Positions 2,821-57,191 of a DNA stretch of 64,000 nucleotides are shown here, in pieces. The notes under the pieces were generated by a model. The model worked only from the letters and a program-made list of their open reading frames with translations, had not been told where the DNA came from and searched no databases. Positions within the stretch are counted from its first letter, which is position 1. Each line of letters starts with the position of its first letter. Both the position numbers and the translations under genes were made by a program. The stretch is from Chrysomallon squamiferum (Eukaryota > Animalia > Mollusca): NCBI GenBank assembly GCA_012295275.1, contig CM022671.1, positions 29,078,001 to 29,142,000 on the forward strand, given 5' to 3'.

Positions 2821-4059
2821 ATCAATTTTATTATGGAAAAAAAAAAAAAAGAAGTAAAAAGAAAAGAAAAGATAAACCACAGTATTAAATATCTGAGCAC
2901 TGAGAGGTGTAAAAGTATCAAACTGTTATTTCAGGTTGTGTTTCTGGGAATGATGACAAGTTCAAGTATCTGGGGGACAATCTGTGACAAATATGGCAGA
3001 AGAGTTGTAAGTATATTTGTAAAACTCTACACTAAAAGGTTCATCAAAGTTCTTTTATTATTATGATTTATATTTTTGTTTTAAATATAAAATGGCTATT
3101 ATTTATTTATTTATATAAATCTTTTAGACTATTGATATTCATATGCACACACATACACACACACATGCATACATACATAATGTATACCTTCCTGTTACAT
3201 GCTCATAACATTTAGCATTCAGATTCTGCCTGAAAAAAATCATATAACTTTAATTTGTTCCAATCTGATACATAGTTAAACTCTGTATAGTTAATGACTC
3301 TACTCTGTTATAATATTTACATGTGTTTCAAATATGTTATTGTTAAACTCTGTACTAATCAGTTATTTACTGACGTTATTTTGTTATAATATTTACTTGT
3401 GTTTCAAAAAATGTCATTGTTAAACTCTGTACCATTTAGTTATTAATTGATTTTTCCTGTCTTATATTTTAATTTAACCACATATTTTATATGGATAAGC
3501 CCTAAATTAATTTCTTAATTATTACTTTATTTTCTTATACTGAAATTTTTTAAATAGTTATCTTCTTATTGTTTTAGTGTGCTGTGTTGTTAGCTTGGTT
3601 TTGATTTGAAAATTTTCCACAGTAAAACTTCATGTTATGCTCTCTGTTAAAGGCCTTAGTTTTGTGCTCGCTGTTTACATTCTACTATGGAATACTGAGT
3701 GCTGCCTCACCAAATTACATCTGGATTCTGGTTCTGCGGGGCCTGGTTGGTTTTGGAATAGGCGGAGCACCCCAGGCGTATGTGTTTATCTTTGTTGTGT
3801 TTTTGATCTGCTTAATCTGACTCTTTTTTATACATTTTGAATACAGATGTGTGAAATATAGAATTATAATATTAGTAATTGTTGTATTGTAGTTGTAAAT
3901 GTTTTCTCTAATAACTCTGATAAGAAATGTAGATATGTAATAAACTGAACAATCATATTTTGTAAATTAAAATCAGAGTAAACATTTTGATATGCATGAT
4001 ACCAACACATCTACTTTACAACTTAGCGAGAGCTTTGGTCATGGTAGTAGTAATAGTAG

Positions 4060-17518: not shown

Positions 17519-20500
17519 TATTCCAAAATTACCAGATGTTTGACACCCAACAGCTAGCGCCAGAAAGTAATTAATCAATTTTCTCCTTAGATTTGTTAAA
17601 AAAGATGTCCAGTGTTGGAAGATTAATAAATATTCTCTATTCATGTTATTGAACAATACTCATTTAGATTTTTTAATTCAAGGAGAATTAACAATGCCTA
17701 AGTAAACATTAAAAGAAGTAATATATAAATGATGTATAATGTGTTTATGCCAAGCTTGGCTTTGTATGAAATTTTGTATCTGGATAGATGCAGAAGTATA
17801 TTAAATATGAAAAATTTGAGATATAATTTTAAAACAAATTTCAAAACACAGCTTTAGCACTTTTGGTATAAAAAAAATAAAAACAACTAAAAAACAAATA
17901 ATATTAAAAAAAAATTAATAATAAAAAATAATAATGATAATAACAATAATAATAGTAAAAAACCATAATGCTATTAAAACTTTCTTGTTACTGGTTATTT
18001 CTATGAAAGTAACAATCAAAACAAACCAACTATAATTAAATGAAGAAGACAAAATAAAGATGAAATGATTTTAACATTTTATTTTGCACACAGTATCATT
18101 TCTATCATATTCTCTTGTTAATATCATGTTGGCCAAATACACATTAATTTAACTATGTACAGTAATATGTTTTGACTGTTATAACAACAGATTTGTTAAC
18201 AATATGTTTCAAAATTATAATATTTTCATGATAAACTTTCCCCTGCATTTCTTTTAACTATCAGTTGATGAAATATGTTGGTCACGTATCTACAGTATTC
18301 AAAAATGTAAATATGTGTATATTTGTGTGTATTTATCAACAGCAATTCTATTTTATTATGAAGATATTTTGAGCATTATCACAAAACAAGTGCATTGGAC
18401 CATAACAACATACTGAAACAATGACTTGTATAATATTAAACATAACAACATTAATAACAACAATAAATAATATTCCAACAATTTATAGTTTTTATATATT
18501 TTACAAATATTGAGGAAAAAAAAAAAAGAACATTGTATATGTATTAGAAATACATTATACATAAATCAGAATATTAAATAGAAAAATAAGTTTAACATGA
18601 AATATTAATAAAGATAAAAATAGTTAACATCAAATTCATCACAGCCCATACGACTGTGAAAATACATATCTATCACAAATAATTTAAATATAAACTGGAA
18701 GTTGTATATTTTCACATTAATTTTTATTTTATATCTATATATATATTTAAAACAAATTAATATGATTTTATATAAATATAAATAAGGAACATGAAAACAT
18801 CACAGCCCATGAAAACAGATGAGTATCAACAACTTTTAAAAGATTTTTGTTTTTTTCAGTTAAAGCCGTCCTAAAATAATTATTTAAAAGTAACAAACTC
18901 CAACTATAGGCAATTAAAATATCTCTAGACTGCACCTTTTCAGAAATTGTTAAAACATGAAATGATGAAAAGTGACTTAAATTTGATGTCTAATGATATA
19001 AATAAGAAATTAAAAAAACCAAGATAAAAACAACTGATTTTGAAAAATAATTACTGCAAAATAAATAAATAAATAAATAAATAAATAAATTAATTAAAAG
19101 AATAAATAAATAAATAAATAAATAAAAGAAAAAGAAGAAAAAGTAAGAAAGAAAACAGTCCAGACACATAAAACATACATTGTTGTAAATTATAATCTCT
19201 ACAAAAAACAAAAATGTGCAGAACTGATCAACTGCTTGAAAAAATATATACACATTAATGAGGATTTTCATTTCCTTGGGCAACATTGTTAACATTTAAG
19301 CAATTATAATATTGTGTTGGTGCATTAAAATGTTGATGGTTTTTTTTTTAAGTGTAGGCTTTCAGTCTGTATGAACTCCAGTATTTAAAAGTGGGGAGAA
19401 TTCTTTCTTATTTCTTAGCCTCTTATCTCTTGTCAGAGTGTATATCTGTGTGTTAGTGTATAAATAACTGGAAGGAAGGAAGAAAGACTAAGAGAAAGAA
19501 AAAATGGTTGACTTGTAAGTCGAGTTTATGCAAAGAGAATATCATGAATTCACTGATGTAAAGTTGATAAACAAATAAAAAACATATCTGGGACAGTTAA
19601 GTACTTTCACTGACTACTAATCTGTACTTATGGTGACAACTTAATGGTCATTATACACAACAGAATCTCTGATATCACAATTTCACTGGTCCAGTACAAT
19701 GCATGAGTACTGTCTATTTCTACTATAATTAACAATCTGGCTGTAAGATGGTTACATCCACCTGAACTGTAAAATACATGCATTTTGTCAATAAAACAAA
19801 ATAAACTCTTGATTAGAGTATGAAAAATTCATAATAATGGTGATGGACATGTATCAAGTGTCATAAACAAAAAGTGAAAAAAAATAATAACTATGCTTTA
19901 CCCGAGGTCACAGCAGCCATTTGGTAAAGGTGGGTAGTAATAAGTAGAATGAAAAAAACCCAACCCATCCCATACTAATCTAATATGCTCAACCAAATTA
20001 TAACAAGATATCAGATTCAATATAAAATATGTATCCTTTTACCCCCTTTTCAATATATATTATTTTATTTTACATTTCTTCATTTTATTTCATTTTATGT
20101 TATTATTATTTTATTATTAACAGTAAAAAGTTGTAAGAAATTGGTAATCAATGTCAAGGGAACAAAAATAAATAAATAAATAACAAAAAAAACAAAGAAA
20201 AAAAAAGAAGAGTAAAATGATAAATAAAAACCTGTAATGTTAATATACTTATGTTTATATATTTCAGCTTATGGTCTTGCAAACAACACATGAAATATTT
20301 GATAGGAATCGTGGATAGGGTTTCTGCATTACATTTCTTAAAAATAAATAAACAAACAGCAGACCAGTTTTCAAAGTCACTGTTTTGTTATGATTGAATA
20401 ATAAACAGTTGATAAGTTATTGAAGACATAACAGTCAGAAATAAAAAAATAAATATCAACTCTACCCTGATGATTTTGACAATGTGGTATTAAAAAAATA

Positions 20501-20974
20501 ATGTAACAGGAGTATTTATTTTTGTTAACATATCATTACATTTCTCAAACATGTAAAAAAAATGACTATAGTTAACAATGTTTGGAGATAGAATATTGGC
20601 CGTTACATGTCTACTTTGTATGTATCTATCAGTGGAACAATCACACACAATGAAAATTGACAGTTCTATAAATATTGTATACTAGTACAGAGCAATGCTT
20701 CTTAAACTATTTCACTGTCCTTTGCCTTTGTCTCATTTAAAAAAAAAAAAAAAAAAAGACGTGCATTCATTAACTTGCAGAGTCTTGTCACTGCTTTCTT
20801 TGTCTTTGGAAACATAAAACTGTATTAGTTATTTCAGTCTCTGTTGTTACAATATCACTTTCCTGACATTTGCGTGATCTCAATCAATACCAAACTCGTG
20901 ATGCTGTATTATTTCAGTCACTGTCCATTATTTCAGCGTCAGGCAGCACAAAATCATGTCAGTCTTAGTCAACA

Positions 20975-21300
20975 GAAAACTAACTTAATTAACTGATTCT
21001 TTCAGCCAGTAGAAAAATGTCTTACTGAACAGTCTCGCCCAATAGAAAACAGATTTACTTGATGGTTTCAGCCAATAGCAAAATGACATACTGTACATTT
21101 CAGCCAATAGAAAAATGACTTACTGAATGGTCTCAGCCAATAGAAAAATGACTTACTGAATGGTCTCAGCCAATAGAAAAATGACTTACTGAATGGTCTC
21201 AGCCAACTGATTTACTGGATAGCCCCAGCCTGCAGAAGCCTGTCAAAAATTTAGTTATTTGGATGACTTCATTCAACAGAAAATTTAATTACTGGATAAT
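20975..21300. repeat. 33-bp tandem repeat (about 8-9 copies, degenerate at the edges) just past the TIR-HEAT stop codon
   Basis: Unit CAGCCAATAGAAAAATGACTTACTGAATGGTCT; period 33 (21121, 21154, 21187). Confidence 0.9.
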
Positions 21301-21327
21301 CCAAGACTTTACGAGATGATGATATTT

Positions 21328-24300
21328 TTATTTTGGTTTAAGAGCAGACATTTCACTGGACAGGACTTCAGTGATATGAATGCAGCGTTTGGCATCTTCG
21401 ATATTCATTCGATTTAAGGCTAATTCTGCAGCTTCTCTCACATTCTTGATTGGATCGTTTCTCCTGAAAAATAAAAACAGTGACAAATGAAATTATTTGT
21501 TCTATCATTAATTCAGTTATTATTAATTTTTTTGTTCATTGATTTAAAAAAAAATTATTTTGTATTAGTTTATATCTGAAATCAAATAACTGACTCTAGG
21601 ATAAAACTGATTTTAACAAATATATTTTAGATATTTAAACAACAATTATAATAAATATAATAATTTCCGTGACAATTATCATAATTATAATAAACCAACA
21701 AAATTGCAATTTAAATAATCATAAAATAATAGAAACACAAACAAAAAGAAAATATTCTTACCATCTGTCAACGACGTGACTGACAGCTCGAACTGCTTTG
21801 AGTGAGCCCAGTGATAACAGAGCACTTTCTCTGACCAGTCTGTCCTCATCTTCCAGTAATCCAACCAGCTTGTCCACTGTGTCCTTTCTGTCCTTGCCTG
21901 AAATACCAAAGTCACCTTTTCTTTTTATACTCATTTCTTTCACTAACTTCAGGTTTCCTCAGCTAATACCAAAAAGGTAACTCAACCTTTTTTTAATTTA
22001 TATTTTATGTGGTTTGTAGAAATAGTCTTAACAATATTTCATATACTTCCTAGTGACTGTAAAGATGATTTTTCTCTTTTGGTATATTTAGCTCATGTTG
22101 TCTGAAGAAACTGGGAAATTGAGTGAACTGTATTTCCATATGTTTCTTTGTGATTGATTGTAAATGTTTACTTTTCACTGTTGTTATATTTAATTTATTC
22201 ATAAATTTCCTCTTGATAGTAATGTTTCTCTTTTATTACAGTTTGTTTGAAATAGCCTAACTATATTTTGATTATATTTCCTATTTATTGTTTTTCAACA
22301 CCAGCATCTGCTAATTATAATGGTTTATAAAAACAAACTGTTTATGAGAAGGCACAAAAACTGATAAATTCTTTTTGTCTGTGATGTTATTTAGTCTGAA
22401 AAATTTTGATTTTGAAATAACTTAGTCAGTTTGTTAGACTTTATTTTTTATTTCTATTTTTATTTTTTTTACAATTAAATGAATAAAATGACCACATTAA
22501 AAAAGAGTAAATGGAAGATGATATGCAGTCACTTCACTGAGTTTGTTTGATGCCTTTAACTTAATTATGTTTAACACAAAATGCTAGTAACAGTGGTATC
22601 CGATATGAATTTATTTTATAAATGACAGAGCTTTGAATTTTCAGTGGAGGTGACAGAATGTTAAATAACGACATTTTTAACAGATTAATTAAAATGTTAA
22701 ATAACGACATTTTTAACAGATTAATTAACAAACCTGCTTTAGACAGAGCTATGGCTGCCACTGCTCTGATGTTTGGATCATCATCTTTCAACATCTCAGT
22801 CAATCCAGAAACAATTGCCGGAAAAGTGAATTTTCCTACAAACCAAACACATATAAACTGTTATTATTCATATTATGAAACCACACCATATAAAGTTTAT
22901 TCTTATACAACAATTACAAACATTTTAAGAGCAGACATGTCAATATTTTATAGTTATTTAGAGCTGACAAACTTGTACGTACCAAGACTCTGAATGGTGG
23001 TCATTCTCAAGGTGCTGTCCATGTCGATGACTTCTCTGAGTGAGAGGTAAGCAATTGTGTATTCCTCCAGGTGATGGTAGAAGCAATGTGGATCTGCAAA
23101 TGGGTTGTTGGATATCACTCTGTCATAGGCCACCTTACTGACTGTCTTGTTCAGGTTGAAGATGTCTTTGTACATGAGGTTCACAAAGAGTTTCTTCTTG
23201 TCTTCAGAATAAGCTTTTATGAGTTTTTCCCCATAGTCTTTGAGAAACGCTTCTTTGAAGTCGGTGAATGAAACTTCGGTTTTACCTTTGAAATGTCGAT
23301 CCCAGAAGTCATAGCTGAGTCCTGTAAAAATGTTTAATTTAATGTTATAATTATCAAGATTTTTAATGATGATAATTATGGTTTCTACTCTTACTAATTA
23401 TCTTTTATATCTAATATATGTATAAATAGGAAAGAACTTTTTTTTCTGTCTGGCACAAGAATAATGGTGCAATACCTAAACCCTTTATTTTTATAAAACA
23501 TATTTTTAGTTACATCACTAAATAACATGAAAGTATATAAAATGTGATGGCCATCTAATATCTTAAATTTAAATAAAAGTTTTCAATTTTGTGAGGCATA
23601 GGCATGATTATACTTTATAAGATATATAACATTCTTGTATCAGACAATGGTATATTTACAAGTTTTACCAGAATAAGAGCACCTATTTAGAAATAAAGAT
23701 TAACATATACTTGGCTACTTGGATATATTTAATATAATGAGTATCAATGAAAGTTAACAGATATATTATCTAGATGTGTTACCTTTCATTTTTGGATCTT
23801 TGGTAGCAGCAACATCAGAATTGTCTGTACAACAGTCATCTGACTGAAGGTCAAGGCCATGTGTAAAGCTCATTTGAAAGTTCATGCCATGAGTGTGAAA
23901 AGTTCCATCAACAAACTCATGCTCTGTCATTTTTCGCCTTTCCATCTCTTGTTTAATACAGGTTATTAGAGCTGGCATGTTTTCTTCATAATGTCCCTCT
24001 TTAAACACAAACGTCCAGTTGATTTTAGCCAACATCAGTTGCCTGGTGTTAGAACAAACATAAAATTTAAACTGTAATAAATCAGCATAGATAAATAATT
24101 GCTCAACTGAAACAAAATATAAAGGTGTATGAGCAAAAATTTAAAAAGCTGTATGTGTCTTACATTATACATTAATATTAAGTATGTTAGAGTGATGATA
24201 AATCATCATTTTAAATTTAAATAAAAGATGTTTAGTATTCCTTTCTCTATAATGGGAAAAGCACATATTTATAGATAAAGAATTCACAGCCTCAAGCTTT

Positions 24301-26699
24301 GACCAAAACGTACCATATAAAAGTTTTTTTTCTATTCTCTATTCTTTCTAACAGGAAAAGCACACATTTATCAACTGTCTTTGAGGCATTCACACACTCA
24401 AACTGTTTTCTAACTTTCTAAGAATACTCACGTTCCTCCACTGAGCTTTGAGCCAAGATCATGGAATGGACTCAGACCAATGGGGAATATGCCAGAGTTT
24501 GAGATGTAAGCCAGTGCAAGTTCATCATTTAGCTGTTTGTCATCAGCTGAACTTTCACTAAGTATTGGTATGAATATCTGCAAGCAGAGAAACTGTCACT
24601 TTAAGAGGCAGTTGATGTGTATAATCAATTGTCTTCCTCCCAGTGTAAAGAAATAGAAAACTCTATTAATTTGTGTCTGTGTCTGTTGGAGTTTTTGTAT
24701 AAATAACAGTGCATAAAATGTTTTTGAATCATATTAATTTTTAAAGGTAATAAATTATCACTTATTGAACTTAAGATTAGTACATTACAAAGTGTAGTAT
24801 AAAATAAAGAAAAGAACAAGAAAAAATTAGATCTAATGGTATTAACAAAGATATTGCTTAATTAAACAGAAAGTAGAGACATTGCAATCAAGGACAGAAA
24901 AAGCCAGCATTCCTGCTTCATTGCTACATAATTATCATTTATTATTAACAAAGGATGACCTCCAGTAAATTGTTTTTAAAACTACACCACAATGGAGTTT
25001 AATTAGGCTATTTTTGATACCATAAAAATCAGTTACCAAATTTTTTTAATAAATCTAGATCAGCAATTATCAACCTTTATTTATTTATTTGTTCTTTTTT
25101 TTGGGAGGGTGGGTGCACAAGTTCATCTCAAGTTCTATGATCCCACTCAGAACAAGGACAAAACAGACAGATAAAAATTTCCATTCTCATATTAGGAGTA
25201 ATTAATAATTTGATTTATCATTACAAGTGATCAGAAAACTAAATGAACAAACCTTGCAGGCCAAGATAGCTTGACTTTTCTGCTGTCCCACTGATGCCGG
25301 GTCTGTAGAGGGACTTGAGTACCACACAGAGAGATTTGATGATCTGATTGTATCTGTCAAAAAAGAAAATCAATAACATATTAAACTTATATTACTATTT
25401 GTAACAAGAAGAACGATGAACAAAAATACAATCAAAACCCATAGAAACAGTTATACACATCCACATAATAAAACAAATTACTTCTGTCAAGTCCTTAGAG
25501 ATTTATATCCTTGGTAAGTCTTGATAAGCAAATGCAAAAACTCCATTACTTTTATAATTATTTATATGTTTACTTCTGTCTGAAAACCAAAAGTATTTAG
25601 CTGAACCATCATTAAGCGTCCATCCATCCAAACTATTAGTTCATTACAGATTGTCTAGTCGGCACAATGACCAATAGAAACCCTTCTGCATTTCACAGAT
25701 TAGAAATTTCTTGCATCATCTATTGCATTTAACTGAATAAAATCTGTCTGTACCTGTGAGACGTCTGACGAAGTGAATGTCTGCTGGAGTATAGGCTATG
25801 ACAACATCATTGACAGTTGGCTGGAGGTTGTCGGAACTGGACATTATGTCAGTGGGTGATTCTGGTCAGCACTTTCAAAGGACTGTGAGTTCTTCAGACT
25901 CTTTCGTTCAGACTTGGGTCTTGGAGAAACTGGTGTGTTTGCACCACTGTACTCGCCAACACTGGTTGGCTCAATTACTGTAAAACAGTAACAAATACTA
26001 CTACTAATGAATAAACACAAAAACAAATAACTGAGTTATACTAGGTTTGTTTATAAATATATAGTCAAACTGGCACAGAACTAGCAGACATGGAACCTCA
26101 CATTAAATAAAAATAATAACAATGTACTTATTAAAAATACAGAAACAAATCAAGAAAACACTATAAAAGGAAAATTCACATACATCACTCATCAAAAAAA
26201 TATAATAAAAATAGAAAAATAAATAAATAACAAATTAATAAAAAAAGCTATCTTAAATGACAGCCATTTTTAATGAACTATGTTTCTCCATTCTGAAGTT
26301 ATATTTCAAACTAATATAACATATTTTATCCAAATTACACACACACACACACGCACACACACACATATCACACACTAACCTCTTCTCTGAAACTAAAAAT
26401 CAAGGTTCTTTCCTTACCAAAAGGTTATTAAGTAAATATTAACACATTTAATTTATTTGATGTTGTTAATGATTTTCTGGTAACCAACTAAGAGATTGCC
26501 TTTCCAGCTACACTTCTTAATATAATTTGTTTAAAAATCTTCTCTGGAGATTAGAATGCATATCAGATAAATTAAATGAAATAAAAAGCAGACAAAATAC
26601 TAAACCAGCTGGATCGTTTATATTAATTATATCTAGAAATAGATTTTAATATACAACCATCGATGTGCTTTGAATGAACTAGCCAAATGCTTTACTATT

Positions 26700-26755
<56 letters not shown>

Positions 26756-27349
26756 GTTTATTATTATTTTATTATTTTTATGTGTTTTTTTTTTTATCAT
26801 TGATGAATGGTTCAAAATGCTGAATGATGAGATGTGTGATTTGGGATGATGTACCTGACACACCTTGACACACCTTGTCACACCCAACACATGAACACAA
26901 CACTGTATAATTATATATAATATTGGATTTTAATAAAGTCTCCTTCTACCAAATAACACATAAGATAAAATAAGCACAGTAATATATCAAACCAAGAAAC
27001 TACATCTACCAAAGAGCATGTTAATATAATGAGCATCTGCAGTTCACTTAATTTACCAAGAGTAATTTCCAGAAAAAAAAAAAAAAAAAAAAATCAATAA
27101 TGCAGACATATAAAAGACATATTAATCTAAAAGTGCAAGTTGGTTAAATGAAAATCATCATACACTATTTGTGTTTTCCTTAAGTAAAAAGAAAAAGAAG
27201 ATAGTAGCTACTGCTTATTTGATCACTTTGTGAAGTATTATCTATAATTGTATCACTTAGGACTAATATTACTGGTAATTAAGTGTCTGTGAAGATACAG
27301 CAGTATTAATATTTACATCAACAGGAATTTGAAGATAACATAAACCTAG

Positions 27350-27424
<75 letters not shown>

Positions 27425-28640
27425 AAGTAAAGTATCTGCTACTGTTTGATTTAAAAACAAATTAGCAAAACCCTTGTATGGCAGCTCTATCTCAGATTAC
27501 TCATCATTTCTCAAACTCATTATTTCCCAAGTAAAGAATTACTCTTCCTGTCTGTAGTAATTAGTAATAGATATGCAATCACATACATGTATACACAAAA
27601 AGACAGACTGTTGATAAGAAATAAATATTTAAATCAGTGCCATTCTGGGCTGTAAATTAAAAACTCTGTAAATGTCAGATTTATGTGAAAATAAGACACA
27701 AAATCAGATTCATGTGAAAAGTTAATATACAGCATCTGAACATATTATAATAAATATTAATGGCATCTATAATTTAGGTTTTAATTTTTATTGCTTTTAT
27801 TCATAGCTTTTATAAAGTGGTAAAAGAAACATACAGATAGATTCACACACTCAAAAACAAATGTGTGTGTGTGTGTGTGTGTACACATATGTAAGCATGA
27901 ATGTAAACACAGACACACACATACATATATATATTTTTTTTTTTTTTTTTTAGAGGTACGCACTTCACTTGGCTTTTGACATTTACTTATGTTAGTGTGG
28001 ATGGAATAGGAATTTGCCATATGTTCCTTTTTAGTTTATTTAAGAAAAGATTAAAGATTTAGTCTTTTTGTGAATGAACAGAACTAAATTACTATACTGA
28101 AATTTCCATACATGCACATGCAAGAACAAATCACACACACACACACACATTTCTTGAATAAATATTACTTATTATAATACCTAGTGAATTTGTGTTCATT
28201 TGTTGTTTTTAAATACAAAACAGTTCCAAGGTAGGAATATACTACAGGCAAACATACTTATTCAGTCAACTTTTCCGTATTTATAGATATGTATAATAAT
28301 GTCCATACAATGGAAAATAACTATTCTCAAATACTAGAAATATTTACTAAGCAGACCAGAAAACAGGAGCATGATGAAGGGACATATCAAATAAAAATAT
28401 GAGAATGATTTATGTCATGAGAATTTATGTTTTTTTTTGTTTCAAAATAAATATGTAACTGGAGATTTAAGAAAATATTTTTAGCATTAATGGCATTTAT
28501 TGAATATGTAATCCTAAATTTCAATAGTTCTGTTTTTTCATATTTTATCCAGTGTTTGTAGTAAATGTATTTGCAGCAAATATATAAGAAATCATTGAAA
28601 GCATCACATTCAGTTTTTTAAGAAAATAATAACAATACTA

Positions 28641-28673
<33 letters not shown>

Positions 28674-30227
28674 ATAATAATAATAATAATTATAATTATT
28701 ATTATTATTCATAAATAAATCAGTAATAATAAATATTAGTATGGATAATGGACAACACATTACATTTTATTTTTTTTTTATATATATATATTTTTTTTCG
28801 ACATATTGACTGAAATTTTTTTTTTTTAAATAAAATAAATTTTTAAACAAATAATTTAAAAAATAAAATTTAATAATATAATAAATAAATAAATGAAAAT
28901 AAAAAATGAACATAATATTAACTCAAACTTCTCTGCCCATGTAAATATCTAATTAATAAATGATTTTTAAAACATTTCATGAACTAGATATTCAAAACTA
29001 ATAGATCAAGAACATTTTTTTCAACTTAAGGAATTGAAAAAGAAAAATTAATTTCCATAAAGGTTTAAATACAAATGAAATTATGTCACATACGACTTTA
29101 AAACATTTAACACAACATTATGAACTACATGTATGTTTCTCACAACAGTTATTATCTGACAGAATATACTGTATTTATGTTCAACCACCACCAGTACCAC
29201 CACAATAACAACCTTAACCACACATTTAACAATACAAACTATATATACACTTCACTAATACTTATATAATCTGACATTACCATGACCAACATCACATTAA
29301 CAACAACATCTTAATCCTACATCATATAATCTGAATAGAACCTAACATCAAATATCATGTATTTATGTAAGCCTTCACCAAAATCACTGCACCATAATCA
29401 TCATCAACAATGAAAACATCATCATCTATCTACATATTAAGAACATAGATTTATAATCTGAAAGATTATGTAAAATCAACAATGTCCCCTCCCCCACATC
29501 TAACACTACATAAGCTAGATATAGATTTTCACAACAATTACAATCTATCAACAGAATATCATATTTATGTAACATTATTATACCAACAACAAAAATAGAA
29601 TCAATGTAACACTATATTAACAGATGTAGGTTCATCAAAACAATTATGATCTGGCAGAAAATCAAAATACTACTACTTTATATATATATTGTATCTGAAT
29701 AGTAAAGCTGTATTTAGTTTTTGTCAAACCCAATAACCAAACAAATTAACAACAGAAAAGATATTTTAAAAAAAGTAATAAAAAAAACTTAAAAACTGTA
29801 GATGAAAAACCCTCCCCCACAAAAACAACAACAAATAATAAAATAAAATAAAATGAATAATAATTATAATTAAAATTAAATAATTAAACAAATAAATAAA
29901 AACAATATAAACTGATATAATAAATATCCAAGCACTAGATTTTTAATTTTTTTCATTATTTATTAAAATTTGATTTATTTATTTTCGTAACTGTTTTGAA
30001 GAAAGAAAAAAAAACAAGAAGAAAAAAAAAAATACAATTTACATTGTAGAAAAATAATGGCCAGCAAATCACCAACATAACATGAATCATGCACTGACAG
30101 TCAGTCAATCACCTAAGCAACAGTGTAACAGAAACACAACACAGATCCAGGAAACATGGATCTTACTGTTAATTCTTATTCCTGCTCTTGCAGTAGATTT
30201 TCCTCTCGACGAGCCTGCACACCCCAT
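21328..30227 (-). CDS. Uncharacterised protein: N-acylation motif, TIR domain, Cbl-EF-hand-like segment, HEAT repeats (about 500 aa; frame break in coding exon 2)
   Basis: Coding exons in gene order: 30227-30167 (MGCAGSSRGKSTARAGIRIN), 25977-25754, 25353-25253, 24577-24432, 24042-23783, 23321-22983, 22835-22734, 21897-21762, 21463-21328 (TAA). TIR: DVVIAYTPADIHFVRRLTDTIRSSNLSVWY...QAILACKIFIPILSESSADDKQLNDELALAY...IFPI. HEAT: LTEMLKDDDPNIRAVAAIALSK, LVGLLEDEDRLVRESALLSLGSL, WRNDPIKNVREAAELAL. All junctions from 25754 onward are in phase; there is a 1-nt frame discrepancy near 25845-25860. Confidence 0.82.
22657..22729. repeat. Perfect 36-bp tandem duplication beside a splice donor
   Basis: AATGTTAAATAACGACATTTTTAACAGATTAATTAA twice. 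Confidence 0.9.
27354..27423. repeat. (GA)n microsatellite
   Basis: Direct reading. Confidence 0.9.
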
Positions 30228-33839: not shown

Positions 33840-34045
33840 CTGATATACAGCAACGATATAACTGTCATCTATCACATAGATAAGTTGAACGGAGAAGATA
33901 AATTGTGTATTTCAGCGATCCTGCCTAGTTACATTGATAACTGCGCACTGACAAATTCCCCGCAACTATGCTAATTAGTAGTAGTACTTTTCATGACCAG
34001 TCTATGATTCCTTCTGCTATTTCTGGTTTTGCACAACACTACAAA
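33840..34045. promoter_or_regulatory. Probable bidirectional promoter shared by the TIR-HEAT gene (-) and ACADS (+)
   Basis: A minus-strand donor (CAG|GTAAGC, exon edge 33840) marks a likely non-coding first exon about 200 bp from the ACADS ATG at 34046; local CpG enrichment. Confidence 0.55.
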
Positions 34046-34275
34046 ATGGCAAGTGGATGTCGAATTTTGTGCAAGTCTTCTTCGAGGTTTCTTTGCGCTC
34101 GTGCAAAAAGTATGATTATAATTACGTTTAACATAGACATCATAAATGTATCAGAAAATAATTTAGAAAGAAATAGCCAGATAAAGTTACTTCTGCACTT
34201 TGACTCTTTAAAGATGCGTAATCATATTGAAAGTACCCTATCAGTATCACATTTCTTAATGACATTTAATACTGT

Positions 34276-34325
<50 letters not shown>

Positions 34326-34358
34326 TCAGAGAGGTTTGAAACTTGTAATTCCATTTAA

Positions 34359-34393
<35 letters not shown>

Positions 34394-37206
34394 GAGAAAG
34401 AAGAAAAAACTGAATTATATAAATATGTATTGTAAATTATTAGATTTTTTTTTTTTTGGTGTGATTAGTATCTCTTTATCTCAACCTTTTTAAATAACTG
34501 CATATAACACGAACAGTATGAATTGTAATTAAGCATTTACAAAAAAAAATGAACTGCCTTGATTTCAGATATCCGATTAAATCATAGATGTTTTAGTGGA
34601 CTGAATGAACTTCCAGAAACCCATCAGCTTCTTCAGAAAACATGTCATGATTTTGCAGATAATGAACTGGTGCCCATTGCTGGACAAATTGACAAAAATC
34701 ACACATTTCCAAAAGATCAGGTTAAAAATATTATCAGTGTTAATAAAGTCAAATGACCTAAATAAACTGGATACTCATTTGCATACTACCAAATTCTGCT
34801 ATATTCCTCTTACTGCCTCTCTCCCTATCTAACCCTCTGTGTGTCTTTGTTTTTTATTTTTTTATTTTAAATATTTACCATATTTGATTAATATTAAGAA
34901 ATAAAATTGTGTTTGCAGATAAAGAAAATGGGTGAGCTTGGTTTGATGGGTATGAATGTGTCGGAGCAAGAAGGAGGTTCAGGTCTGGACTATTTGGCGT
35001 ATGCAATAGCCATGGAGGAAATAAGTCGAGGCTGTGCATCTACTGGCGTCATCATGAGTGCACACAATGTAAATATTTTCATTATAATTTCTTTTTAATC
35101 ATATCTAACCACAGAACACAAAGCAGTCCCTCTACAGGAAAGTAACAGTAGCTAAGTGAGAGATTTCTGTGTAGTTCCTGTCTTGTAGTATTAAAGTCTA
35201 ATAGCTGTTAACTGTTAATATGCAAAACAATCACACATCAGATTATTGGCTTATATTTCATTATGTTATATATTTAACATTTTTGGTTTAACAACTACAA
35301 AATATTTTTGTGTGCATATATGTTTATAGACATATCTTTGAGAAAATGTCTATGGTTTGCTCTTTCTCTCTCTCTCATTCTATCTCTCTTCCCTTACCTC
35401 TCTCTCTCTCCTTCTCACCCTCTTTGCTCTGTTTACAATTCAGTTTCTTATGAAAAAGGCTAAGCTCAATCCAAATTTCTGTTGACAGTCTCTCTATCTT
35501 GGTCCTATTAAAACATATGGAACAGATGAACAAAAAGAGAAATTTCTGAAGCCATATCTAACTGGTGAAAAAATTGGTTGTTTTGCTCTAAGTGAACCAG
35601 GTATGGTTACATTTTCTTTTTTTTCTGATAAAGGAAAAGTACACGAATGATAAAAATAACTGATTTAAAATTAATTGCTTAATATTTCTGCTTTAATTAA
35701 AATAGAATTGAGTTATTACCAATTATGCATTATTCACTAATGCATTAATTTAATCTTTTTTTTTTTTTTAAATAGTATGAATTATCCAGTCAGAATTACA
35801 TTTTATATAGTTTCATATTTTGACAAGCCTTTAATGCGGAGTTTAATTGCTTTTAAATAAATCATACTAATAACATATTCATAGATATGATTTCATTAAA
35901 TTAAAGTTATGTATTTTCAATATTCAGCTAGAAACCTTTGGATATTTACATAATAAAATATATTTTCAAATACATTGCCCATTATAAAAAGAAAATAACA
36001 TTATTTTCTTTCTTTTTCTCGCTTTCTCTTTTTCTTTTTATCCTTTACATATACATGCAACTAACGCAAATGTCAAATTACATAGGCATTTAACATATAT
36101 GACAGCATAACTCTGACAGCTACATTTCCAATGGTTTTGAGGAAAATAACATTGAAGGTCATAATAGGGCTGGGGTCACTGCACATTACAGATACAATAG
36201 TTCAGCATCATATTATTCTTTTTCTCAAAATTGTTAGTTATACACAATGTACTTTACCACAGCAGTATATTTTGTGCAAAAATGCTTATCTTTGTGTGTG
36301 TATGAGTTCATGCACATGTCCCCCATTTGTGTGTATGTTTAATTTTGTGTATATTATTGTTTTAAACATGAACCCAGTGTGTAAAAAGAATTAATTAAAA
36401 TTTCAGGTAATGGCAGTGATGCAGGAGCTGCTTCTACAACAGCCAAACTTGATGGTCACACCTGGGTTCTGAATGGAACAAAATCATGGATAACCAATGG
36501 CTATGAAGCAGATGCTACTGTGGTTGGCATATCGTTTAATTTTTTAATATTTAAAAAATAAATTAAAATTAATTATATATATATAATTATTATTATTATA
36601 GTAAAATATTAATTAAATTTTTATTTATTTATTTATTTATTGTTTTTTTTTTATTAATAATAATTATTGTTATGTAAATTTTTGATTATTATTATTATTA
36701 TTTTCAGTTATTGATAATATTTTAATTTAAAAAAATATATATTCTTTTTGTTATAAATTGACAGTCTAATTAGTATGATTCAACGATATTAAAATCCTAA
36801 TTTCATCTCTTTAAATTAGCTCTTTATTTAAAATATGTAACAGAAAAGATATAAAGATAAATCACCTAAGAAATCTTTCATAAATCCAGTGTAATGTAAT
36901 TTTTTTTTTTAATATTTAATTTTTATATCTCAGGTATTTGCTACTACAGATAAAAGTAAAAAGCACAAGGTAAGCCATTTAGTATGTTTTTGCATACAGC
37001 TATATCTCTGTGTAATATCTGATCTTTATTAGAAAAAGAAATTGTTTCAAAAATAAAGAAAAACCAAAATGATTTCTCTTGCCTGATTTTTTAATATTTA
37101 TTTTATTTTATTTTATTTTATTTTATTTTATTTTATTTTATATATTATTATTTTTATTTATTTATTTTATTTATTTATTCATTTATTTATTTATTTGTTT
37201 GTTTGT

Positions 37207-37265
<59 letters not shown>

Positions 37266-38689
37266 TTTTGTGCATGAAACATTATTTTTTAAACAGTACT
37301 CTCTGCCACAGTATTGTTTTCATTCTGTCATAATTTCCATCAATTGTTCAATTAAATATAATGATTTTTTTAGGGTATTAGTGCCTTTTTAGTGCCTAAA
37401 CCAACTCCTGGGTTGTCACTTGGAAAAAAGGAAGACAAACTTGGCATCAGGGGGTCTTCTACCTGTAATCTTATATTTGAAGACTGCAGAATTCCAGCAG
37501 AAAACCTTTTAGGAGAGCCAGGCTTTGGATTCAAGATTGCCATGGTAGCATGCTTTCTCCACTTAGCATCTGTTTATACATAGTAGTAATATCAAGCTAA
37601 TTTTAAGCATGGTTATTAATTTATTTGTTTTTAAAATGTAGACAGAATTAGGTTTTAATATTTTTCAGTCTGGATGTAATAATTTCTTTGATTTTTTTCT
37701 GACTGATTATAAATCTAAATCAGTGCATTTTATATTTTGATTAAAAAGAAGTATTTAGTTAATAAGGATTTGTTTTCTTTTTAATTTTAAATGGTTAAAC
37801 TGTATTAGAGATGTTTCTTACATATATATATATATATATGTATGTATATTATATATGCACTTAAGACCTTCTGGCTCCAACCCCTCAATATATATATCAT
37901 ACCTGTGCGCACACACATACACACAAATACAGACATGCAACATAGACTTGTATTTTATATAACAAAAAATAATAACACAGCTGCAGTAAAAATAGTAATA
38001 ACCATATCCCTAATGGTAGTATAATTTGTATATTTTTCTTATATATGTTTGCTATTTATGGAATAATGTTGTTTTTTTTTGTTGTTTTTTATAGAAAACT
38101 TTGGATGATGGTAGAATTGGGATTGCAGGACAAGCTTTAGGAATAGCACAGGTATGTTAATTATGTTAATTAAAGCTGATAAGTTACATGTAATATTAAA
38201 ATTTTATTTATGATATAAAATTAAAACTTGGTATATAAAACAAGTATTAAGAATATTTTAACGTTCAGGGATTAGCAACTTATGACCTTCATTAGTATTT
38301 AATATCTTTATTCTTAATATGTTTAATACAGAAGGTTTTAGATACATGCCAATATTCTGTGTTCTTGATTTTTTATACTGAAAATGTAAGTACAGAGAAA
38401 TATTTTTGCCATAAAAAAAAATGCTGGGCTTTATTCTACAAATGAGTAATAAAATATTTATTTTTTTATTATTATTATTATTATTTTTATTTTATTATTA
38501 TTTTTTTTAAATTATTATTTTTTTGTTTTTTTAGGCTGCCTTAGAGTGTGCTATTGAATATTCAAAAACAAGAATAGCATTTGGTTCTCCTATTGCCAAA
38601 TTACAAGCTATTCAGGTAAGCTGATACTATTCACTGCATCTTTTCTAATTATATAATATCTAGATATACCATATGTTATCTACAATGTG

Positions 38690-38742
<53 letters not shown>

Positions 38743-39568
38743 CATATTATTATTCAAGTACAAACACATAAGTTCATTATATTTAAATTCCTTAATGATT
38801 TTAGATCTGTATTTCAGCTAAAAATAGCTGACATGGCTCTTAAACTTGAAAGTTCTCGACTTTTAACATGGAGGGCAGCAGTGCTGAAAGATGCAGGGAA
38901 GCCATTTACAAAGGTATTTTGTTTAAATTCTTCAAAGTGTTAATTGCAGCAGTATTAATAAAGCTATTATTGTCATCATACATTAATTTGTTTACTTTAA
39001 GTTTATAAACTTTATATTTGGTACAGATTTTGTGAACTTACCTAGGCTGTATGCAGTTCATATTTAGTTATATTGGTTTTCTGCATTTAGTCAAGATTTT
39101 AAATATTAGAATATTTAATTGTTATTGTTTTCAAAATGTTTATTGTTGTTCTTATTTCATACATATTACAGATTTAATATAAAATTAAAACCACTTTTGT
39201 TTTCAGGAAGCAGCCATGGCTAAATTAGCAGCATCTGAAACTGCTACTTTCGTTGCTCATCAGGTATATCAGATTTATTCATTTTTTAATTCCAGTTTCA
39301 TTTAGATACTTATTTTCTAACAATTTTTTTGTTTATTGTTGCGGTTATAGTTTCTAACATTTGTTTTTGGCTGTTGTTGCTGCCTTATCCTTTGTTAATT
39401 ATTTATGGTTATTTTTGATTATTTCAGTGTATCCAGGTTCTTGGTGGAATGGGCTACGTGACAGACATGCCTGCAGAGCGACACTACAGAGATGCCAGGA
39501 TAACAGAAATTTATGAAGGCACAAGTGAAATCCAGCGACTTGTCATTGCTGGAAATATTCTCAAATAA
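34046..39568 (+). CDS. ACADS: Short-chain specific acyl-CoA dehydrogenase, mitochondrial (about 410 aa)
   Basis: Exons 34046-34109, 34569-34720, 34919-35068, 35489-35600, 36407-36522, 36934-36969, 37374-37544, 38095-38151, 38535-38615, 38818-38913, 39207-39263, 39428-39568 (1233 nt, in frame). Motifs: [96 protein letters not shown]-terminus is R/S-rich like a transit peptide. Confidence 0.96.
38686..38741. repeat. (GT)n microsatellite
   Basis: Direct reading. Confidence 0.9.
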
Positions 39569-48856: not shown

Positions 48857-50016
48857 ATGGAGGATTCAGAGTTTCAACATCCTTCAGCTTCAAAAGCATT
48901 TGAAAATGTACAGAAGTCATATCAGAAAAAGTTATCACAAGTCCAAAAGACCAAATCAAATTACATTCCAGGTATATATTTCTGCATTGTATTATATTTT
49001 CATTATTTAGAATATTTTTTTAAAACTACTAAATTATTATTGTTATGGTTGTTATTGCTACCAATTTATCAATAATTTATTCTGACGATAGGAATGAACT
49101 TTTTAATTAAAGAAAAATTTCAATTTTTTGTTATTCAAAAATATATATTTTAATGATCAGAATTAAATTTTAAAATATTAATTTTAATATTTCATAAATA
49201 AAAAAAATAAAAAAATATAAACTGAATATCTGCGTGTGTGTGTGTGTATCTGGGACACAAAATTGAAAAATTTACAAGATACATACATACATGCATACAC
49301 CTATACTTACATACATATATTTATTTACTGCAACATTACCACAGGACTAACACCCCGGCCTTATGATCCTTCACCTTCTGAACCAGAACCAGCAGCACAG
49401 ATGCCAGCTGCAAATGCTGAGCCAAAAACTGTTCCACAAGAACTTGTACAGAATTTTCTGTCTGGTAAAAAACACCCAATCAGTTGTCTGATGGAATATG
49501 CTGCACTGATGAGGTACCAAGTGAAATTTCAAGAAGTTGCTGTGGACGTGTACTCTATATGTGCAAAATTTGCATCAATGTGTACAATGGATGGCGTGAA
49601 TTACCCACAGGGAGTTGGCAAAACCAAAAAAGAAGCAAAGACAAATGCAGCCAAAATTGCATTTGCTATGGTTTTGGGCTTAAATCAAGATGAAATTGAA
49701 AATGAAGGTTTGTTATTTAAATTCTACTGAAACAAAAAAGAAGAAAAATCGCCTAATGATTTTTGTATGCTTCAAGTCACAGTTTTATTTTGCTAATGGC
49801 AGTCAACCTTTGATAATAATAAAATGTAATTGTAACAAAATTAAGCCCATTGGTTCATTCATGTGCTAGATGTGAACAGAAATGTAAAACAATTCTTCAG
49901 ATTTAGGATATAGTGACTTTAAAACGATTTACTCAGTGTTATATGTCTAATTTTTCAATTTTTTATTATTATTATTTTTAATTTATTTAGAATTTTTAAA
50001 ATTATTATTACTACTT

Positions 50017-50047
<31 letters not shown>

Positions 50048-53000
50048 TTATTTTAACTATTTTTGTCGTTTTGGTGCAAAACGTTGGTTTTATTTCATTA
50101 GACTTTCAATAAATTAATTTTTACAAAAAAAAAAGAATAAATAAATAAATAAAAATAGGTATGTCCTGCCTATTTATTAAATCATTTTATTTCATGTATA
50201 TGTAGATTTGTGCATGCAACACAGACACTGTATTTTCTTCTCTTGAAAATTCAATTTATTTTTGCTTCTAAGATATATTTAACATAATGATTGAAATCCT
50301 CTATTTGCCCTTGTTTTTAATACACATTAATTTTCCATTATGATTTACATTTGTTTCTGTAGAATCGGGAACATTTCAGTATGATGCTATGGGTAGAAGA
50401 CTTTTTATTCCTACGGATGGAGTTTCCAAGCCAGTGGTTGCACACTCAGTCGTGATGCCTCAAGATATGCCAATGATGGCAGCTGCTCCAGAATCTCAAG
50501 AATACAATCCTGTAGTCCTGCTGCAGAATTTCTGTACCAGGTGCAGGATTCCTTTTTCTATAACAGTTGAAGATGATATTGGACCTTATGGGTGAGTAGT
50601 TGTGTTCATGAATATTTTATTCTTTCTATGTTTCACTTCTTTTTATTGTTTTTCTTTCTTGTCTTTCCATATTTCTTCTTTCTTTTTTTTTATTCTTTTG
50701 TTTCTCTCTCTGTCTCTCATTCTCTCTTTTCTTTCTCTAAACTTTTTCTTTCCTTTGCTTTTCTGTACAGTAAATATTGTAAAAGACTGATTTATTCTGC
50801 TTATTTAGTTTCTACAAAAATTTATATCACAATTCTAAGTCAAAAGGTGTTCATAGTTATGACAAATATTTTTATGTGCAGAGGTGATGGAATTTTAGAT
50901 GTACTGAAAGCATATTTAAATTTTTTTAAACTTTTAATACAATTATTTGTTTTATTTTATTTTTAGAATATTTAAGTAAAGTAACTCATTGGAACAGGTG
51001 AAAAGATTGGCTTTATTGATGACTTGTCTGAAAACATTTGAAATACTTTATAATTATTCATAGCTTCAGGGGTATGTGCTGAGATCATGTTATAAGATAT
51101 TCTTTATTATTACATGTAGATATTATGCCGAAGTTAAAGTTCGCAGTGAGAAACTTGTAGAAGTTTATGCTAAAACGAAAAAAGATGCAAAACGCCAGGC
51201 AGCTGAAGAAGCACTGGAAATACTCATGAAAACAGAAAAGGTGAAGTTAACAGCAACTGTAATTAAAACTACTGCTAATATTTTCAAACAGAAAATTCTT
51301 TCTGCAGAACATAGTGGATCACGATGAAACTGAATGATAAGATAAATCCTCATTTAATGACGTATAAAAACCTTTTATGTTAACAGTTATCTCACTTGCC
51401 CCCTTCTCTCTCTCTGTCTCACTCTGTTTCTTTTTGTTTCTTTCTCTTAAAGAGGAAACCTGAATTTATGTATTATTATCTTTTGTTTTTGAGAAAGTCA
51501 CTGCTTTTGTAACACAGTTGCAAATAATCTTTTAAATGCAAAAATGGACATGACATGGATTTTGATACTTAATTTACATGTCTCTATAATATAGTTTTAT
51601 TAAATATTTTGCCTCCATTCAGATAAAACCTAAACATGCTGAGAACATTTGTTTTTTCAGATTGAGGTAGATGAAATGGCCAGCATGTCAGATCCAGATC
51701 GTATAGCCACACTGGCCTACAATAAACTGTTTGGATCTCTCGAAGTTGTGCCAGACCTTTATGCTATCAAGAAAACATTTGCTGCTTTTATTGTAAAGCA
51801 CAGTATGTAGAAATTAACACCATTTTATGCTGATTCAAAGAATATTAATTTTTAGAAAGTTAAAAAAAACAAAAAACCACAGAAGACAAATGATAACTTA
51901 ATCTGCCTAGTATCTGAAAGTTTACATAAACAAATTATATGTAATAAATGGTATCTTTTATTTATTTATTTACTTTTGTTTTGTTTTGTTTGTTTGTTTG
52001 TTTGTTTGTTTGTTTGTTTGTTGTTTTTGTTATTATTTTTAATTTTTATCATCATTATTATATTATTATTATTATTATTTTTTTTTTATTTTTTATTACT
52101 TATTCCTAAAAAAAAAACACCCAAAAATAACTAATTTTATCTCATGTTATTCTGAAGTACAGCACATAATTTATTAATTAACTGTACATTAAATTCTCAC
52201 AGCGGAGACAGATTATGGAGAAGTCGTAGCATTTGGAACTGGAAACTGCAGTCTTTCATCAGAAAAATTAACTAACGACGGGCGATCTCTGTTAGACTGC
52301 ACTGCTGTCACAATGGCTCACAGAGCTTTGTTGAAGTGGGTTGATTTCTTTATTCACTACTTCAGTTACATGTGTAACTTATGTCCCGAACAAGATTATT
52401 CATCATCCTGTATAATAATTTCATTACTCTTTAAGATTAGAACAAAAAATATTTGTTATCCCCAGATCTTCTGTGATACAGATAGCTTTGGGTTAGTGAT
52501 TAGATTGTTTTACAACTCTGTTTTATTGAAAGGTAGTTTAATTGTACATCTTTTTGTTTTTGTTTAATGTTGTTAAATTTGTTAGAGTATCCACTGCAAG
52601 ACATTAGAGCATATTACTGTATACAAATTTTAATCTTAATCTTAATCTTAATCATTTTAATTTTATTTTATTTTATTTTATTTTATTTTATTTTATTTTA
52701 TTTTATTTTTGTTATTTTCAGATACTTTTACAAAGAAATGAAGAGGCACTATGAAGGTGGAAAAGTTCTGTCAATATTTGCACCAGGGTCAGCACCAGAC
52801 CATCTGCAGTTGAAAAAAGACACAACAATACATCTGTACCTCAGTGAGCCACCAGATGGAGATTATGGTCTGTTTGCTGACCAGTACGTTTCTAAACTGA
52901 AAACCTTCTTTCCTGATGTCTATTATAGCTTTTTTCATTAATAATACTTTTTATGATTTGGAGTAATTCATTTTGTTTTAACTATAATTCTATAAAGATA

Positions 53001-53317
53001 ATATTGTTATTCTCCTAATATTTCGTTTCCTATTAACAAAATAATGTGTCTTGAAAGCCTCTTTTCATTTTTTTAAATTAATTAACAAACTTGTTTTAAA
53101 ATCTTTTTCCCCTGAGTAGGACCCATTATATTTTGACTGGGAAAGAGAAAGAAGTGAACAAAATTGAGACTTCATACAGGGTTTCTTGAAAACAAATTTA
53201 AAAATAGATTTTTATCACAGTGACATATGTAATTCTGAAATATGAAATACTTTTCAATGTAAATTTGGCTGGCACAAACTTGCAGATTTATTGATTGCTG
53301 TAAATATCTTCTTTTAC

Positions 53318-53358
<41 letters not shown>

Positions 53359-56300: not shown

Positions 56301-57191
56301 ATAATTAAGTACTGTGAAGCCAGTCTTTGCGAGAGAAAGTGCCTGACGGCGGAGACATTCACGATTCCCCGCACAATATTAAATGAGGTAGTTTAATAAA
56401 CAAACCTGAAGTCTTCGAAGCCATCGAGAATGGTAAGCATCCCGATTCAAGAAAAGGCGGTATGAAACGCATCAAGCACGTGACGTTTGAAGATGTCGAC
56501 TCCGCGCTAATTGAATGGTTTCGACAAATGGATGCTGGATCAGAAATTAGTATCGATGGTGAAATACTTCTTTAAAAAGCACGAGACTTTGCTGAGCAGC
56601 TTGGTCACGAGGATTGTGAGAAACTGAAGTAGTTTGAATTGATCGTTTTAAGGAAAAGCGGGTGAATCTGGGGGTGTTAATACAGCAGTAGCTGAAGAAT
56701 GGAAAAATCGAAGGACATTCTCCAGAACATGTGAACACCGATGAAAGCGGACTATTGTGGCTGCTTCTACAAGAAAAGACGCTAGGATAAGTCGTCACAT
56801 TGCCTACTTACATCTACAAGTAGTCATATCTCTAAATCGTCAGAAAAATCTTGGTCTTGAAAGTGATGACTTAGCTGAGGTCATTACTGTATTATCTTTT
56901 ACGTATTTTCAATTTTCAACTTGTTGTTTTTTTTTTTTCCCCAGCTCTCCCAAAAAGACAGGCCCGTCGCTGGCAAGTCGATTGTGCAAAGCAGCATTCC
57001 TGGCTCGCTTCAGAGAACTGGCACCATTGTCTGAAAAGAAACACCTTCTGAAAGCTTCAACCTACTATGCAGCTAAACAGAGTTCTAAAAAATACCAAGC
57101 AGCCAAACATGCCTTCCGTGACCACTGTGTACAAGCAGGCATTGGTTGTTGGGTTGCTAAGCCTCATGTATTTGAAACCTTCAATAAATAA
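48857..57191 (+). CDS. ADAR/ADAD-like protein: two dsRNA-binding motifs plus a catalytically dead adenosine deaminase domain (about 680 aa)
   Basis: Exons 48857-48971, 49345-49707, 50363-50591, 51120-51240 (or 51258), 51661-51802, 52203-52335, 52722-52883, 53476-53585, 54146-54328, 54981-55218, 56945-57191. dsRBM1 KHPISCLMEY...GVGKTKKEAKTNAA; dsRBM2 NPVVLLQNF...AKTKKDAKRQAAEEAL. Deaminase fold: VVAFGTGN, HLYLSEPP, MSASDKILKWNILGLQ, PIYLSSI, SRLCK, WVAKP. Confidence 0.9.
54345..54614 (+). mobile_element. Non-autonomous Tigger-type MITE (Tigger4/Zombi-like)
   Basis: TA|CAGGTTGAGAATCCCTTATCCAAA ... TTTGGAAAGGGATTCTCAATCTA|TA: near-perfect TIRs with a TA target duplication, 270 bp. Confidence 0.85.
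55881..56889 (+). mobile_element. Decayed, internally deleted pogo/Tigger (Tc1-mariner superfamily) DNA transposon in the last intron of the ADAD-like gene
   Basis: Imperfect TIRs CAGTAAACCTCGCCTAAGTCGTCA ... TGATGACTTAGCTGAGGTCATTACTG followed by TA. Broken transposase from 56244: MATSGKR...EKYEII...FTIPRT (HTH), FEDVDSALIEWFRQ...IDGEILL*KARDFAEQL (CENP-B-type HTH), NTDESGLLWLLLQEKTL (first Asp of DDE); contains stops and frameshifts. Confidence 0.85.

Follow-up and report, generated by a model that had tools for sequence, protein, structure and literature searches.

A 64,000-nucleotide (nt) window of the genome of the snail Chrysomallon squamiferum (contig CM022671.1, positions 29,078,001 to 29,142,000) was analysed with respect to a minus-strand gene whose coding exons lie between positions 21328 and 30227 of the window. 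The gene, very probably a member of the ecTIR-DC 11 family, carries two open reading frames (ORFs) and not one. An anchor-free TIR/HEAT protein of 436 amino acids (aa) is preceded in the same locus by a 64-aa peptide starting with MGC. The split is probably real and conserved, and it is probably best read as an ancient fission that took place within a single locus. We give an even chance to the fuller reading, in which the ecTIR-DC 11 gene was split into these two products and the peptide is likely a subunit that can detach and that recruits the TIR protein to a membrane or regulates it. The observations behind it are the exon structure, the frames and the stop between them, the homology of the peptide and the selection acting on it in two other animals.

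The gene lies in AT-rich animal DNA and comprises TIR, helical and HEAT parts, as the first-pass annotation, made from the sequence alone, had proposed. Contigs of four read runs were aligned to positions 19500-28800 of the window. One spliced contig each was found in X6 (an RNA library, study P1) and in X8 (study P2, library type not on record), so that eight exons were supported from two studies. The first-pass annotation had asked for its junctions to be sought in reads. Six of the seven junctions among these eight exons were listed for X6 and X8 alike, and the seventh, 25353|25754, was deduced from the coordinates of the X8 record. Every intron of the TIR gene is of the GT-AG type. The gene is real, spliced and expressed, and it does not encode a single membrane-anchored protein.

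The last point departs from the first-pass annotation, which had joined everything from the MGCAGS start to the HEAT repeats into one ORF and one anchored TIR protein. The first coding exon of the upstream ORF (30167..30227, minus strand) holds the MGCAGS start and 20 codons and ends in a phase-1 GTAAG donor; it is backed by the sequence, by an exon of equal phase in another locus (L010, below) and by homology to the N-termini of two fused proteins, P0048 and P0011. Followed from ATG 30227 and spliced in phase 1 to 25977, its frame closes after 64 aa at TAA 25846-25844. The exon shared by the two ORFs (25754..25977, minus strand) contains the remainder of the upstream ORF at 25977-25844 and the start of the TIR ORF at 25844-25754. 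In the TIR frame, four stops are located upstream within this exon (25973, 25910, 25877 and 25868), followed by ATG 25844, from which the 436-aa ORF runs to the stop 21330-21328. The stop of the upstream ORF overlaps the TIR start codon as TAATG (25842..25846, minus strand). Because the MGC N-terminus belongs to a separate ORF, the TIR protein of this gene is without the MGC anchor. The X8 spliced contig agrees with 25754-25980 without gaps in 227 of 227 letters, and an indel row in the shared exon appeared in none of the four runs. By arithmetic, both DNA contigs hold one inserted letter more in 22699-26327 than the listed rows account for, which probably sits at a dropped repeat row. As the repeat rows were dropped, the position of this letter is not given, and therefore the DNA runs alone cannot clear the shared exon and the X8 contig is decisive.

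The upstream peptide is homologous to sequences that other animals carry on the TIR protein itself. In Branchiostoma (P0048 and P0093) and in the nemertean Tubulanus (P0011), a homologous N-terminus is fused in frame to the TIR domain; the snail peptide scored 58 against the N-terminus of P0048 and 55 against that of P0011 (0 of 5000 shuffles in each case). A scan of metagenome contigs yielded 35 loci, of which L009 and L010 cover the region in the clade of the window gene and have an upstream ORF. Both are annelid-like and group with Ridgeia (support of 94 in the Shimodaira–Hasegawa-like approximate likelihood ratio test, SH-aLRT), outside the mollusc clade; all trees were quick IQ-TREE runs with SH-aLRT values only. 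L010 has an MGC exon, a phase-1 intron as in the snail and a second exon starting IEPTSV. Its upstream ORF of 114 aa, to which the snail peptide scored 85 (0 of 5000 shuffles), ends at TAG with a 42-nt spacer to the TIR ATG in frame 0. The L009 contig begins inside the second exon and shows TGA at the codon homologous to the L010 stop, with a 13-nt spacer in frame +1.

The upstream ORF with its own stop is under purifying selection in L009/L010. Over the first 28 aligned codons, the proportion of synonymous differences (pS) was 0.88 and that of nonsynonymous differences (pN) 0.12, with third positions accounting for 18 of the 25 changes (p 9e-5), and the pN of the TIR exons of the two loci was similar (0.10-0.12). 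Across all 79 codons of the upstream ORF the constraint was weaker (pS 0.94, pN 0.28). The most conserved parts of the peptide are the MGCxxS start, present in all four complete N-termini, and the motif Ix-I-N-(V/I)-I-E-P-T, which is common to the fused proteins. In each of the 29 named mollusc orthologues (one per species) the first residue is the TIR Met, no more than 14 residues from TIR strand A; many of them have several RefSeq transcripts for one protein, as would fit alternative leaders. Between the acceptor and the TIR ATG no ATG occurs in any of the three loci (shuffle P0 0.009-0.19), which lends modest support to the use of this stretch as a leader.

Several observations weigh against the split with a working peptide. 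No read or contig with the MGC exon spliced in was found, reads having been compared over 19500-28800, a stretch outside which exon 30167..30227 lies. The X8 contig uses another 5' exon: it enters the shared exon from one ending CAG, and the MGC exon ends ACA. L009 and L010, which are mutually related, are known from genomic contigs and not from RNA, and L009 is without its first exon. The stops lie at different places (64 aa in the snail, 114 aa in L010), so the splits may be independent and that of the snail possibly recent. No upstream ORF of this kind is seen in L017 and L022, which also fall in the clade of the window gene. Searching with a four-row alignment for short peptides that stand alone gave 13 candidates, none at E<=10, a null that says little because such ORFs are rarely called. 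As to the enzyme, the Glu at the putative catalytic position (Glu83) survives in no more than 38 of 57 rows (two gaps); most heterobranch and caenogastropod rows have Gln, His or Arg instead, and the Trp which RPP1 and Cat1 have four residues before it occurs in none of the 57.

The main rival is a conserved-peptide upstream ORF (uORF) acting in cis only, whose translation would repress or tune TIR synthesis or trigger nonsense-mediated decay, the released peptide being inert. The short distance between its stop and the TIR ATG in all three loci (0-42 nt), the seven introns downstream of that stop and the existence of an isoform without the MGC exon (X8) are all consistent with such a role, and a cytotoxic TIR would presumably benefit from tight translational control. 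However, conservation is strongest at MGCxxS and at the motif shared with the fused proteins and not at the C-terminus, and the length and end of the ORF differ between the snail and L010; cis control alone is regarded as unlikely.

The remaining readings are less likely than the cis-only uORF. The upstream ORF could be a relic of a long isoform recently and separately knocked out in the snail and in the L009/L010 lineage, with only the short TIR protein being of importance. A single added base near 25862 would unite the snail frames, the resulting 65-codon extension would be near the 69 residues of Tubulanus, and the MGC exon is missing from the expressed X8 contig. Against this, silent sites between L009 and L010 are saturated and yet the peptide is kept up to a homologous stop (TGA versus TAG), and 29 of 29 mollusc orthologues are short although the snail retains a motif shared with amphioxus. 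The Met-Met start of the Gigantopelta protein also implies a TGA at the same overlapped position, a weak argument as it is drawn from the protein alone. We regard the relic as quite improbable.

Marginally less probable still is the restoration of one anchored TIR protein by recoding or by a minor splice form with a downstream acceptor or an internal intron. Phase-compatible AGs do precede 25861 in the window and 285 in L009, and the stop of L010 is in the TIR frame, which would permit readthrough. But the AG of the window is preceded by just four pyrimidines in 12 nt, and L010 is without a phase-1 AG between the stop and the TIR ATG. In the five codons that precede the stop, neither L009 nor L010 has a GT, so any intron would cost conserved codons. 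The shifts needed in the three loci differ (-1, 0 and +1), and thus no single recoding mechanism fits. A programmed -1 frameshift was discounted, since visual inspection from the last TIR-frame stop to the TAA turned up no XXXYYYZ heptamer and the frames required differ in the other loci. An assembly error, by which the frame break would be artefactual and one anchored protein of 500 aa would be made, is hardly credible, for the unplaced extra letter deduced for both DNA contigs and the fused forms in P0048 and P0011 are set against the gap-free match of X8, the four runs without an indel row and the independent stops in L009 and L010.

In the preferred reading, that of a split gene with a working peptide, an mRNA without the MGC exon, such as that in X8, would give the TIR protein alone by way of its ATG-free leader. 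An mRNA with the MGC exon would give the peptide, and the TIR protein only through reinitiation or leaky scanning. MGCxxS is a dual-acylation motif, and both myristoylation and palmitoylation of the 64-aa peptide are predicted there. Its motif Ix-I-N-(V/I)-I-E-P-T is proposed to attach in trans to the TIR-HEAT body, just as in the fused forms it would do so in cis; such binding in trans is put forward tentatively and leans towards the doubtful. The bound peptide would concentrate the TIR protein at the membrane, where the clustered TIR could oligomerise and signal, possibly cleaving nicotinamide adenine dinucleotide (NAD+) via Glu83. The boldest version, rather unlikely in our view, holds that, since before the parting of molluscs and annelids, the 5' leader has yielded the anchor as an acylated micropeptide of its own, which recruits a soluble TIR-HEAT NAD+-cleaving enzyme (NADase) in trans, with the choice of promoter or exon arming the enzyme. 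The split may have arisen once, with re-fusion in Tubulanus, or several times.

The split would likely give control over where or when the TIR protein acts. If true, it would be a natural gene fission that different phyla have kept within a single transcription unit, fused forms being available for comparison, and the peptide would be an unannotated microprotein overlooked in mollusc gene models. It would offer a test case for two questions: whether a targeting sequence, once severed, can still act as a subunit, and how a TIR that may be toxic is restrained.

Parts of this arrangement have counterparts in known systems. In reinitiation of the TURBS type (for termination upstream ribosome-binding site), an upstream UGGGA motif pairs with 18S rRNA. 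No UGGGA/TGGGA was found in the 100 nt upstream of the snail overlap, and the stop/start overlap occurs in one of the three loci, a pattern that does not qualify as TURBS-type; given the spacers of 13 and 42 nt in L009 and L010, the TAATG overlap is not conserved. The overlap itself is identical to the UAAUG used for termination-reinitiation in influenza B M1/BM2, caliciviruses and SART1, as set out in section 9 of PMC10275272, but the snail case concerns a cellular gene. A selected short ORF before a main ORF in one locus is also a feature of conserved-peptide uORFs.

Microproteins from uORFs that bind the downstream product are known, for example MIEF1-MP and ASDURF. The small ORF of the snail differs from these in being the severed N-terminus of the main protein, which is fused elsewhere and bears a dual-acylation motif. 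An MGxxxS myristoylation motif with Cys3 occurs in TRAM/TICAM2 and in MGC anchors of the Src type, and TRAM/TICAM2 resembles the snail gene in that this motif is linked to a TIR adaptor; in the snail gene, however, the motif is absent from the TIR polypeptide. The likeness to SARM1 and C. elegans TIR-1 lies in the structural match of the TIR domain described below, in the retained Glu and in the helical repeats beside an enzymatic-type TIR. Unlike these, the window protein has its TIR at the N-terminus, no SAM domain, short PBS-lyase-type HEAT repeats, about 18% identity and no Trp four residues before the Glu.

The 436-aa protein is 85% identical to P0001 (Gigantopelta aegis LOC121368014), which was used to establish the fold, as the Pfam TIR models were not reached by single exons of the window. 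The TIR and HEAT parts proposed by the first-pass annotation were recovered in P0001: Pfam reported TIR_2 at E 1e-10 (residues 14-135) and HEAT_2 at E 5e-20. The HEAT repeats are C-terminal to the TIR, so the domain order is indeed the reverse of that in SARM1. No leucine-rich repeat, SAM or death domain was present among the eight Pfam families of P0001 at E<=0.01, and the model leaves no room for the leucine-rich repeats plus transmembrane helix of a TLR or the death domain of MyD88, in agreement with the earlier view that the protein is not a TLR, MyD88 or SARM1. In the full-length model of P0001 (predicted local distance difference test, pLDDT, 77.9; predicted template modelling score, pTM, 0.47), the TIR is followed by a linker at 155-201, which is disordered, and then by a helical domain and some four helix pairs. 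With this pTM and the disordered linker, the model gives no defined contact between the TIR and the HEAT repeats, which the first-pass annotation had proposed to gate the TIR. In the structure comparison of the TIR, SARM1 was the best match (Z 16.5), tied with TIR-1 (16.3), and RPP1, TIRAP and MyD88 came close after.

The exons downstream of the shared one, all on the minus strand, follow this order. Exon 25253..25353 encodes part of the TIR (junction 24577|25253 in X6 and X8; tblastn 86% to P0001), and 24432..24577 the part with the putative catalytic Glu83 (codon 24523-24521; spliced contigs and alignment). The TIR end and the disordered linker are located in 23783..24042, as judged from the spliced contigs, the P0001 model and tblastn. 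Exon 22983..23321 encodes the helical middle domain, assigned from the model and the structure comparison. Modelled alone (pLDDT 86.9), this domain gave a weak match to 6xar_A, the EF-hand region of the Cbl tyrosine kinase-binding (TKB) module (Z 7.4, root-mean-square deviation 2.9, 76 aligned; Foldseek E 0.1), the next match being calmodulin (Z 5.7), so an EF-hand-like middle of the Cbl type was borne out weakly. Cbl_N2 fell under the cut-off in 3 of 20 proteins, and by eye the acidic calcium-loop pattern is missing from the loops. The HEAT repeat exons are 22734..22835 (spliced contigs and Pfam search) and 21762..21897 (HEAT_2 E 1e-6; spliced contigs). The last coding exon, 21328..21463, contains the stop 21330-21328 (X6/X8 contigs and splice site), and the spliced contigs extend to 21177. 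In Haliotis, the isoform P0003 is without the first HEAT exon, and the number of HEAT repeats may be subject to alternative splicing. The ESM Atlas held no match of at least 0.9 for P0001 and none usable for the L010 peptide.

A search with the family profile gave 49 matches at E<=1e-30, of which 48 were family members. These came from sponges, Trichoplax, molluscs, annelids, a brachiopod, nemerteans, echinoderms and amphioxus, and no vertebrate, arthropod or nematode name was among them. One clear orthologue runs across the molluscs. In a tree of 46 rows, the clade of the window gene stood apart from a paralogue clade mostly starting MG. The family is reportedly that named ecTIR-DC 11 by Gerdol et al. 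in 2017, and the window protein resembles it in having a TIR followed by ARM/HEAT repeats; Pfam, the models and the figure label agree on an N-terminal TIR, C-terminal ARM/HEAT repeats and no other known domain. The Trichoplax protein P0119 (TrispH2_006850) matched the profile at E 4e-133 and fell inside the clade of the window gene in the first tree (33 rows, support 99), its placement on a long branch being less sure in the later tree. Supplementary Fig. S1 of PMC6321704 assigns the label ecTIR-DC 11 to TrispH2_006850 and to the adjacent 006851. With this label on the Trichoplax orthologue, the window protein adds a member to a family that has a name but is unstudied; contrary to the first-pass annotation, which had called the protein unannotated, the family is not an unrecognised one, database orthologues extending from sponges to amphioxus. 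In PMC5549309, family 11 is reported as elevated in the gill of a mussel, and section 5 of PMC13142454 notes several uncharacterised animal TIR clades. The available portions of accounts of ecTIR-DC 11 differ from the present case in giving no function or split N-terminal ORF. No functional study or split ORF for the family was found in the literature searched, most subscription journals lying outside its coverage, which makes the family an open candidate for a further animal TIR enzyme beside SARM1. Six orthologue ids were named nowhere in that literature, and three EukProt ids of orthologues were absent from the supplements of PMC13142454.

Two ecTIR-DC 11 paralogues are arranged head to head in L017, L022 and L023, the Trichoplax genes 006850/006851 are adjacent and Lingula LOC106162413/415 lie on one contig. 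The MG-start paralogue has a more canonical active site (Tyr/Phe plus Glu). The sequences suggest that the two paralogues may work as a pair, one as enzyme and the other as its partner; the window itself showed no second paralogue. Viral contigs showed no relative. Prokaryotic genomes gave 18 loci, 17 of them weak matches in the HEAT region and one strong (L036). The latter is an intron-bearing, sponge-like member on a 482-kb contig within a bacterial genome bin; given its introns and sponge-like sequence, it is probably a misbinned host contig.

Glu83 is aligned with the Glu of the DEL/YEL motif in Cat1, RPP1 and AbTIR. The position four before it is Gln in the window and Tyr/Phe in six rows of the other paralogue clade. 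The Glu is replaced in P0006, P0008, P0106, P0108, P0112, P0114 and P0116; the replacements concern most heterobranch and caenogastropod snails, plus crinoids. This pattern suggests repeated loss of a putative enzyme activity within the family. With the Glu lost in these rows and no Trp before it, NADase activity is plausible and not safe, and for the TIR protein of the window we would put it somewhat below an even chance.

At the 5' side of the gene, an acceptor at 30306 may turn exon 30167..30227 into a cassette exon. A candidate non-coding first exon is proposed at 33840..33915 (minus strand) with the donor CAG|GTAAGC at 33840, the sole GTAAG donor among 19 candidates matching the upstream CAG of X8. 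Head to head with this probable first exon, with about 200 bases between, lies an acyl-CoA dehydrogenase gene (34046-39568, plus strand), of the short-chain type by eye. Further along the plus strand, 49221-55219 contains ORF fragments resembling an ADAR-type gene, with double-stranded-RNA-binding and deaminase-like motifs. A CENP-B/pogo-like helix-turn-helix fragment (56387-56572) and a transporter-like exon of the major facilitator superfamily (3626-3817) were recognised by eye, both on the plus strand. Just past the end of the spliced contigs, a short tandem repeat with the unit CAGCCAATAG occupies 21025-21210.

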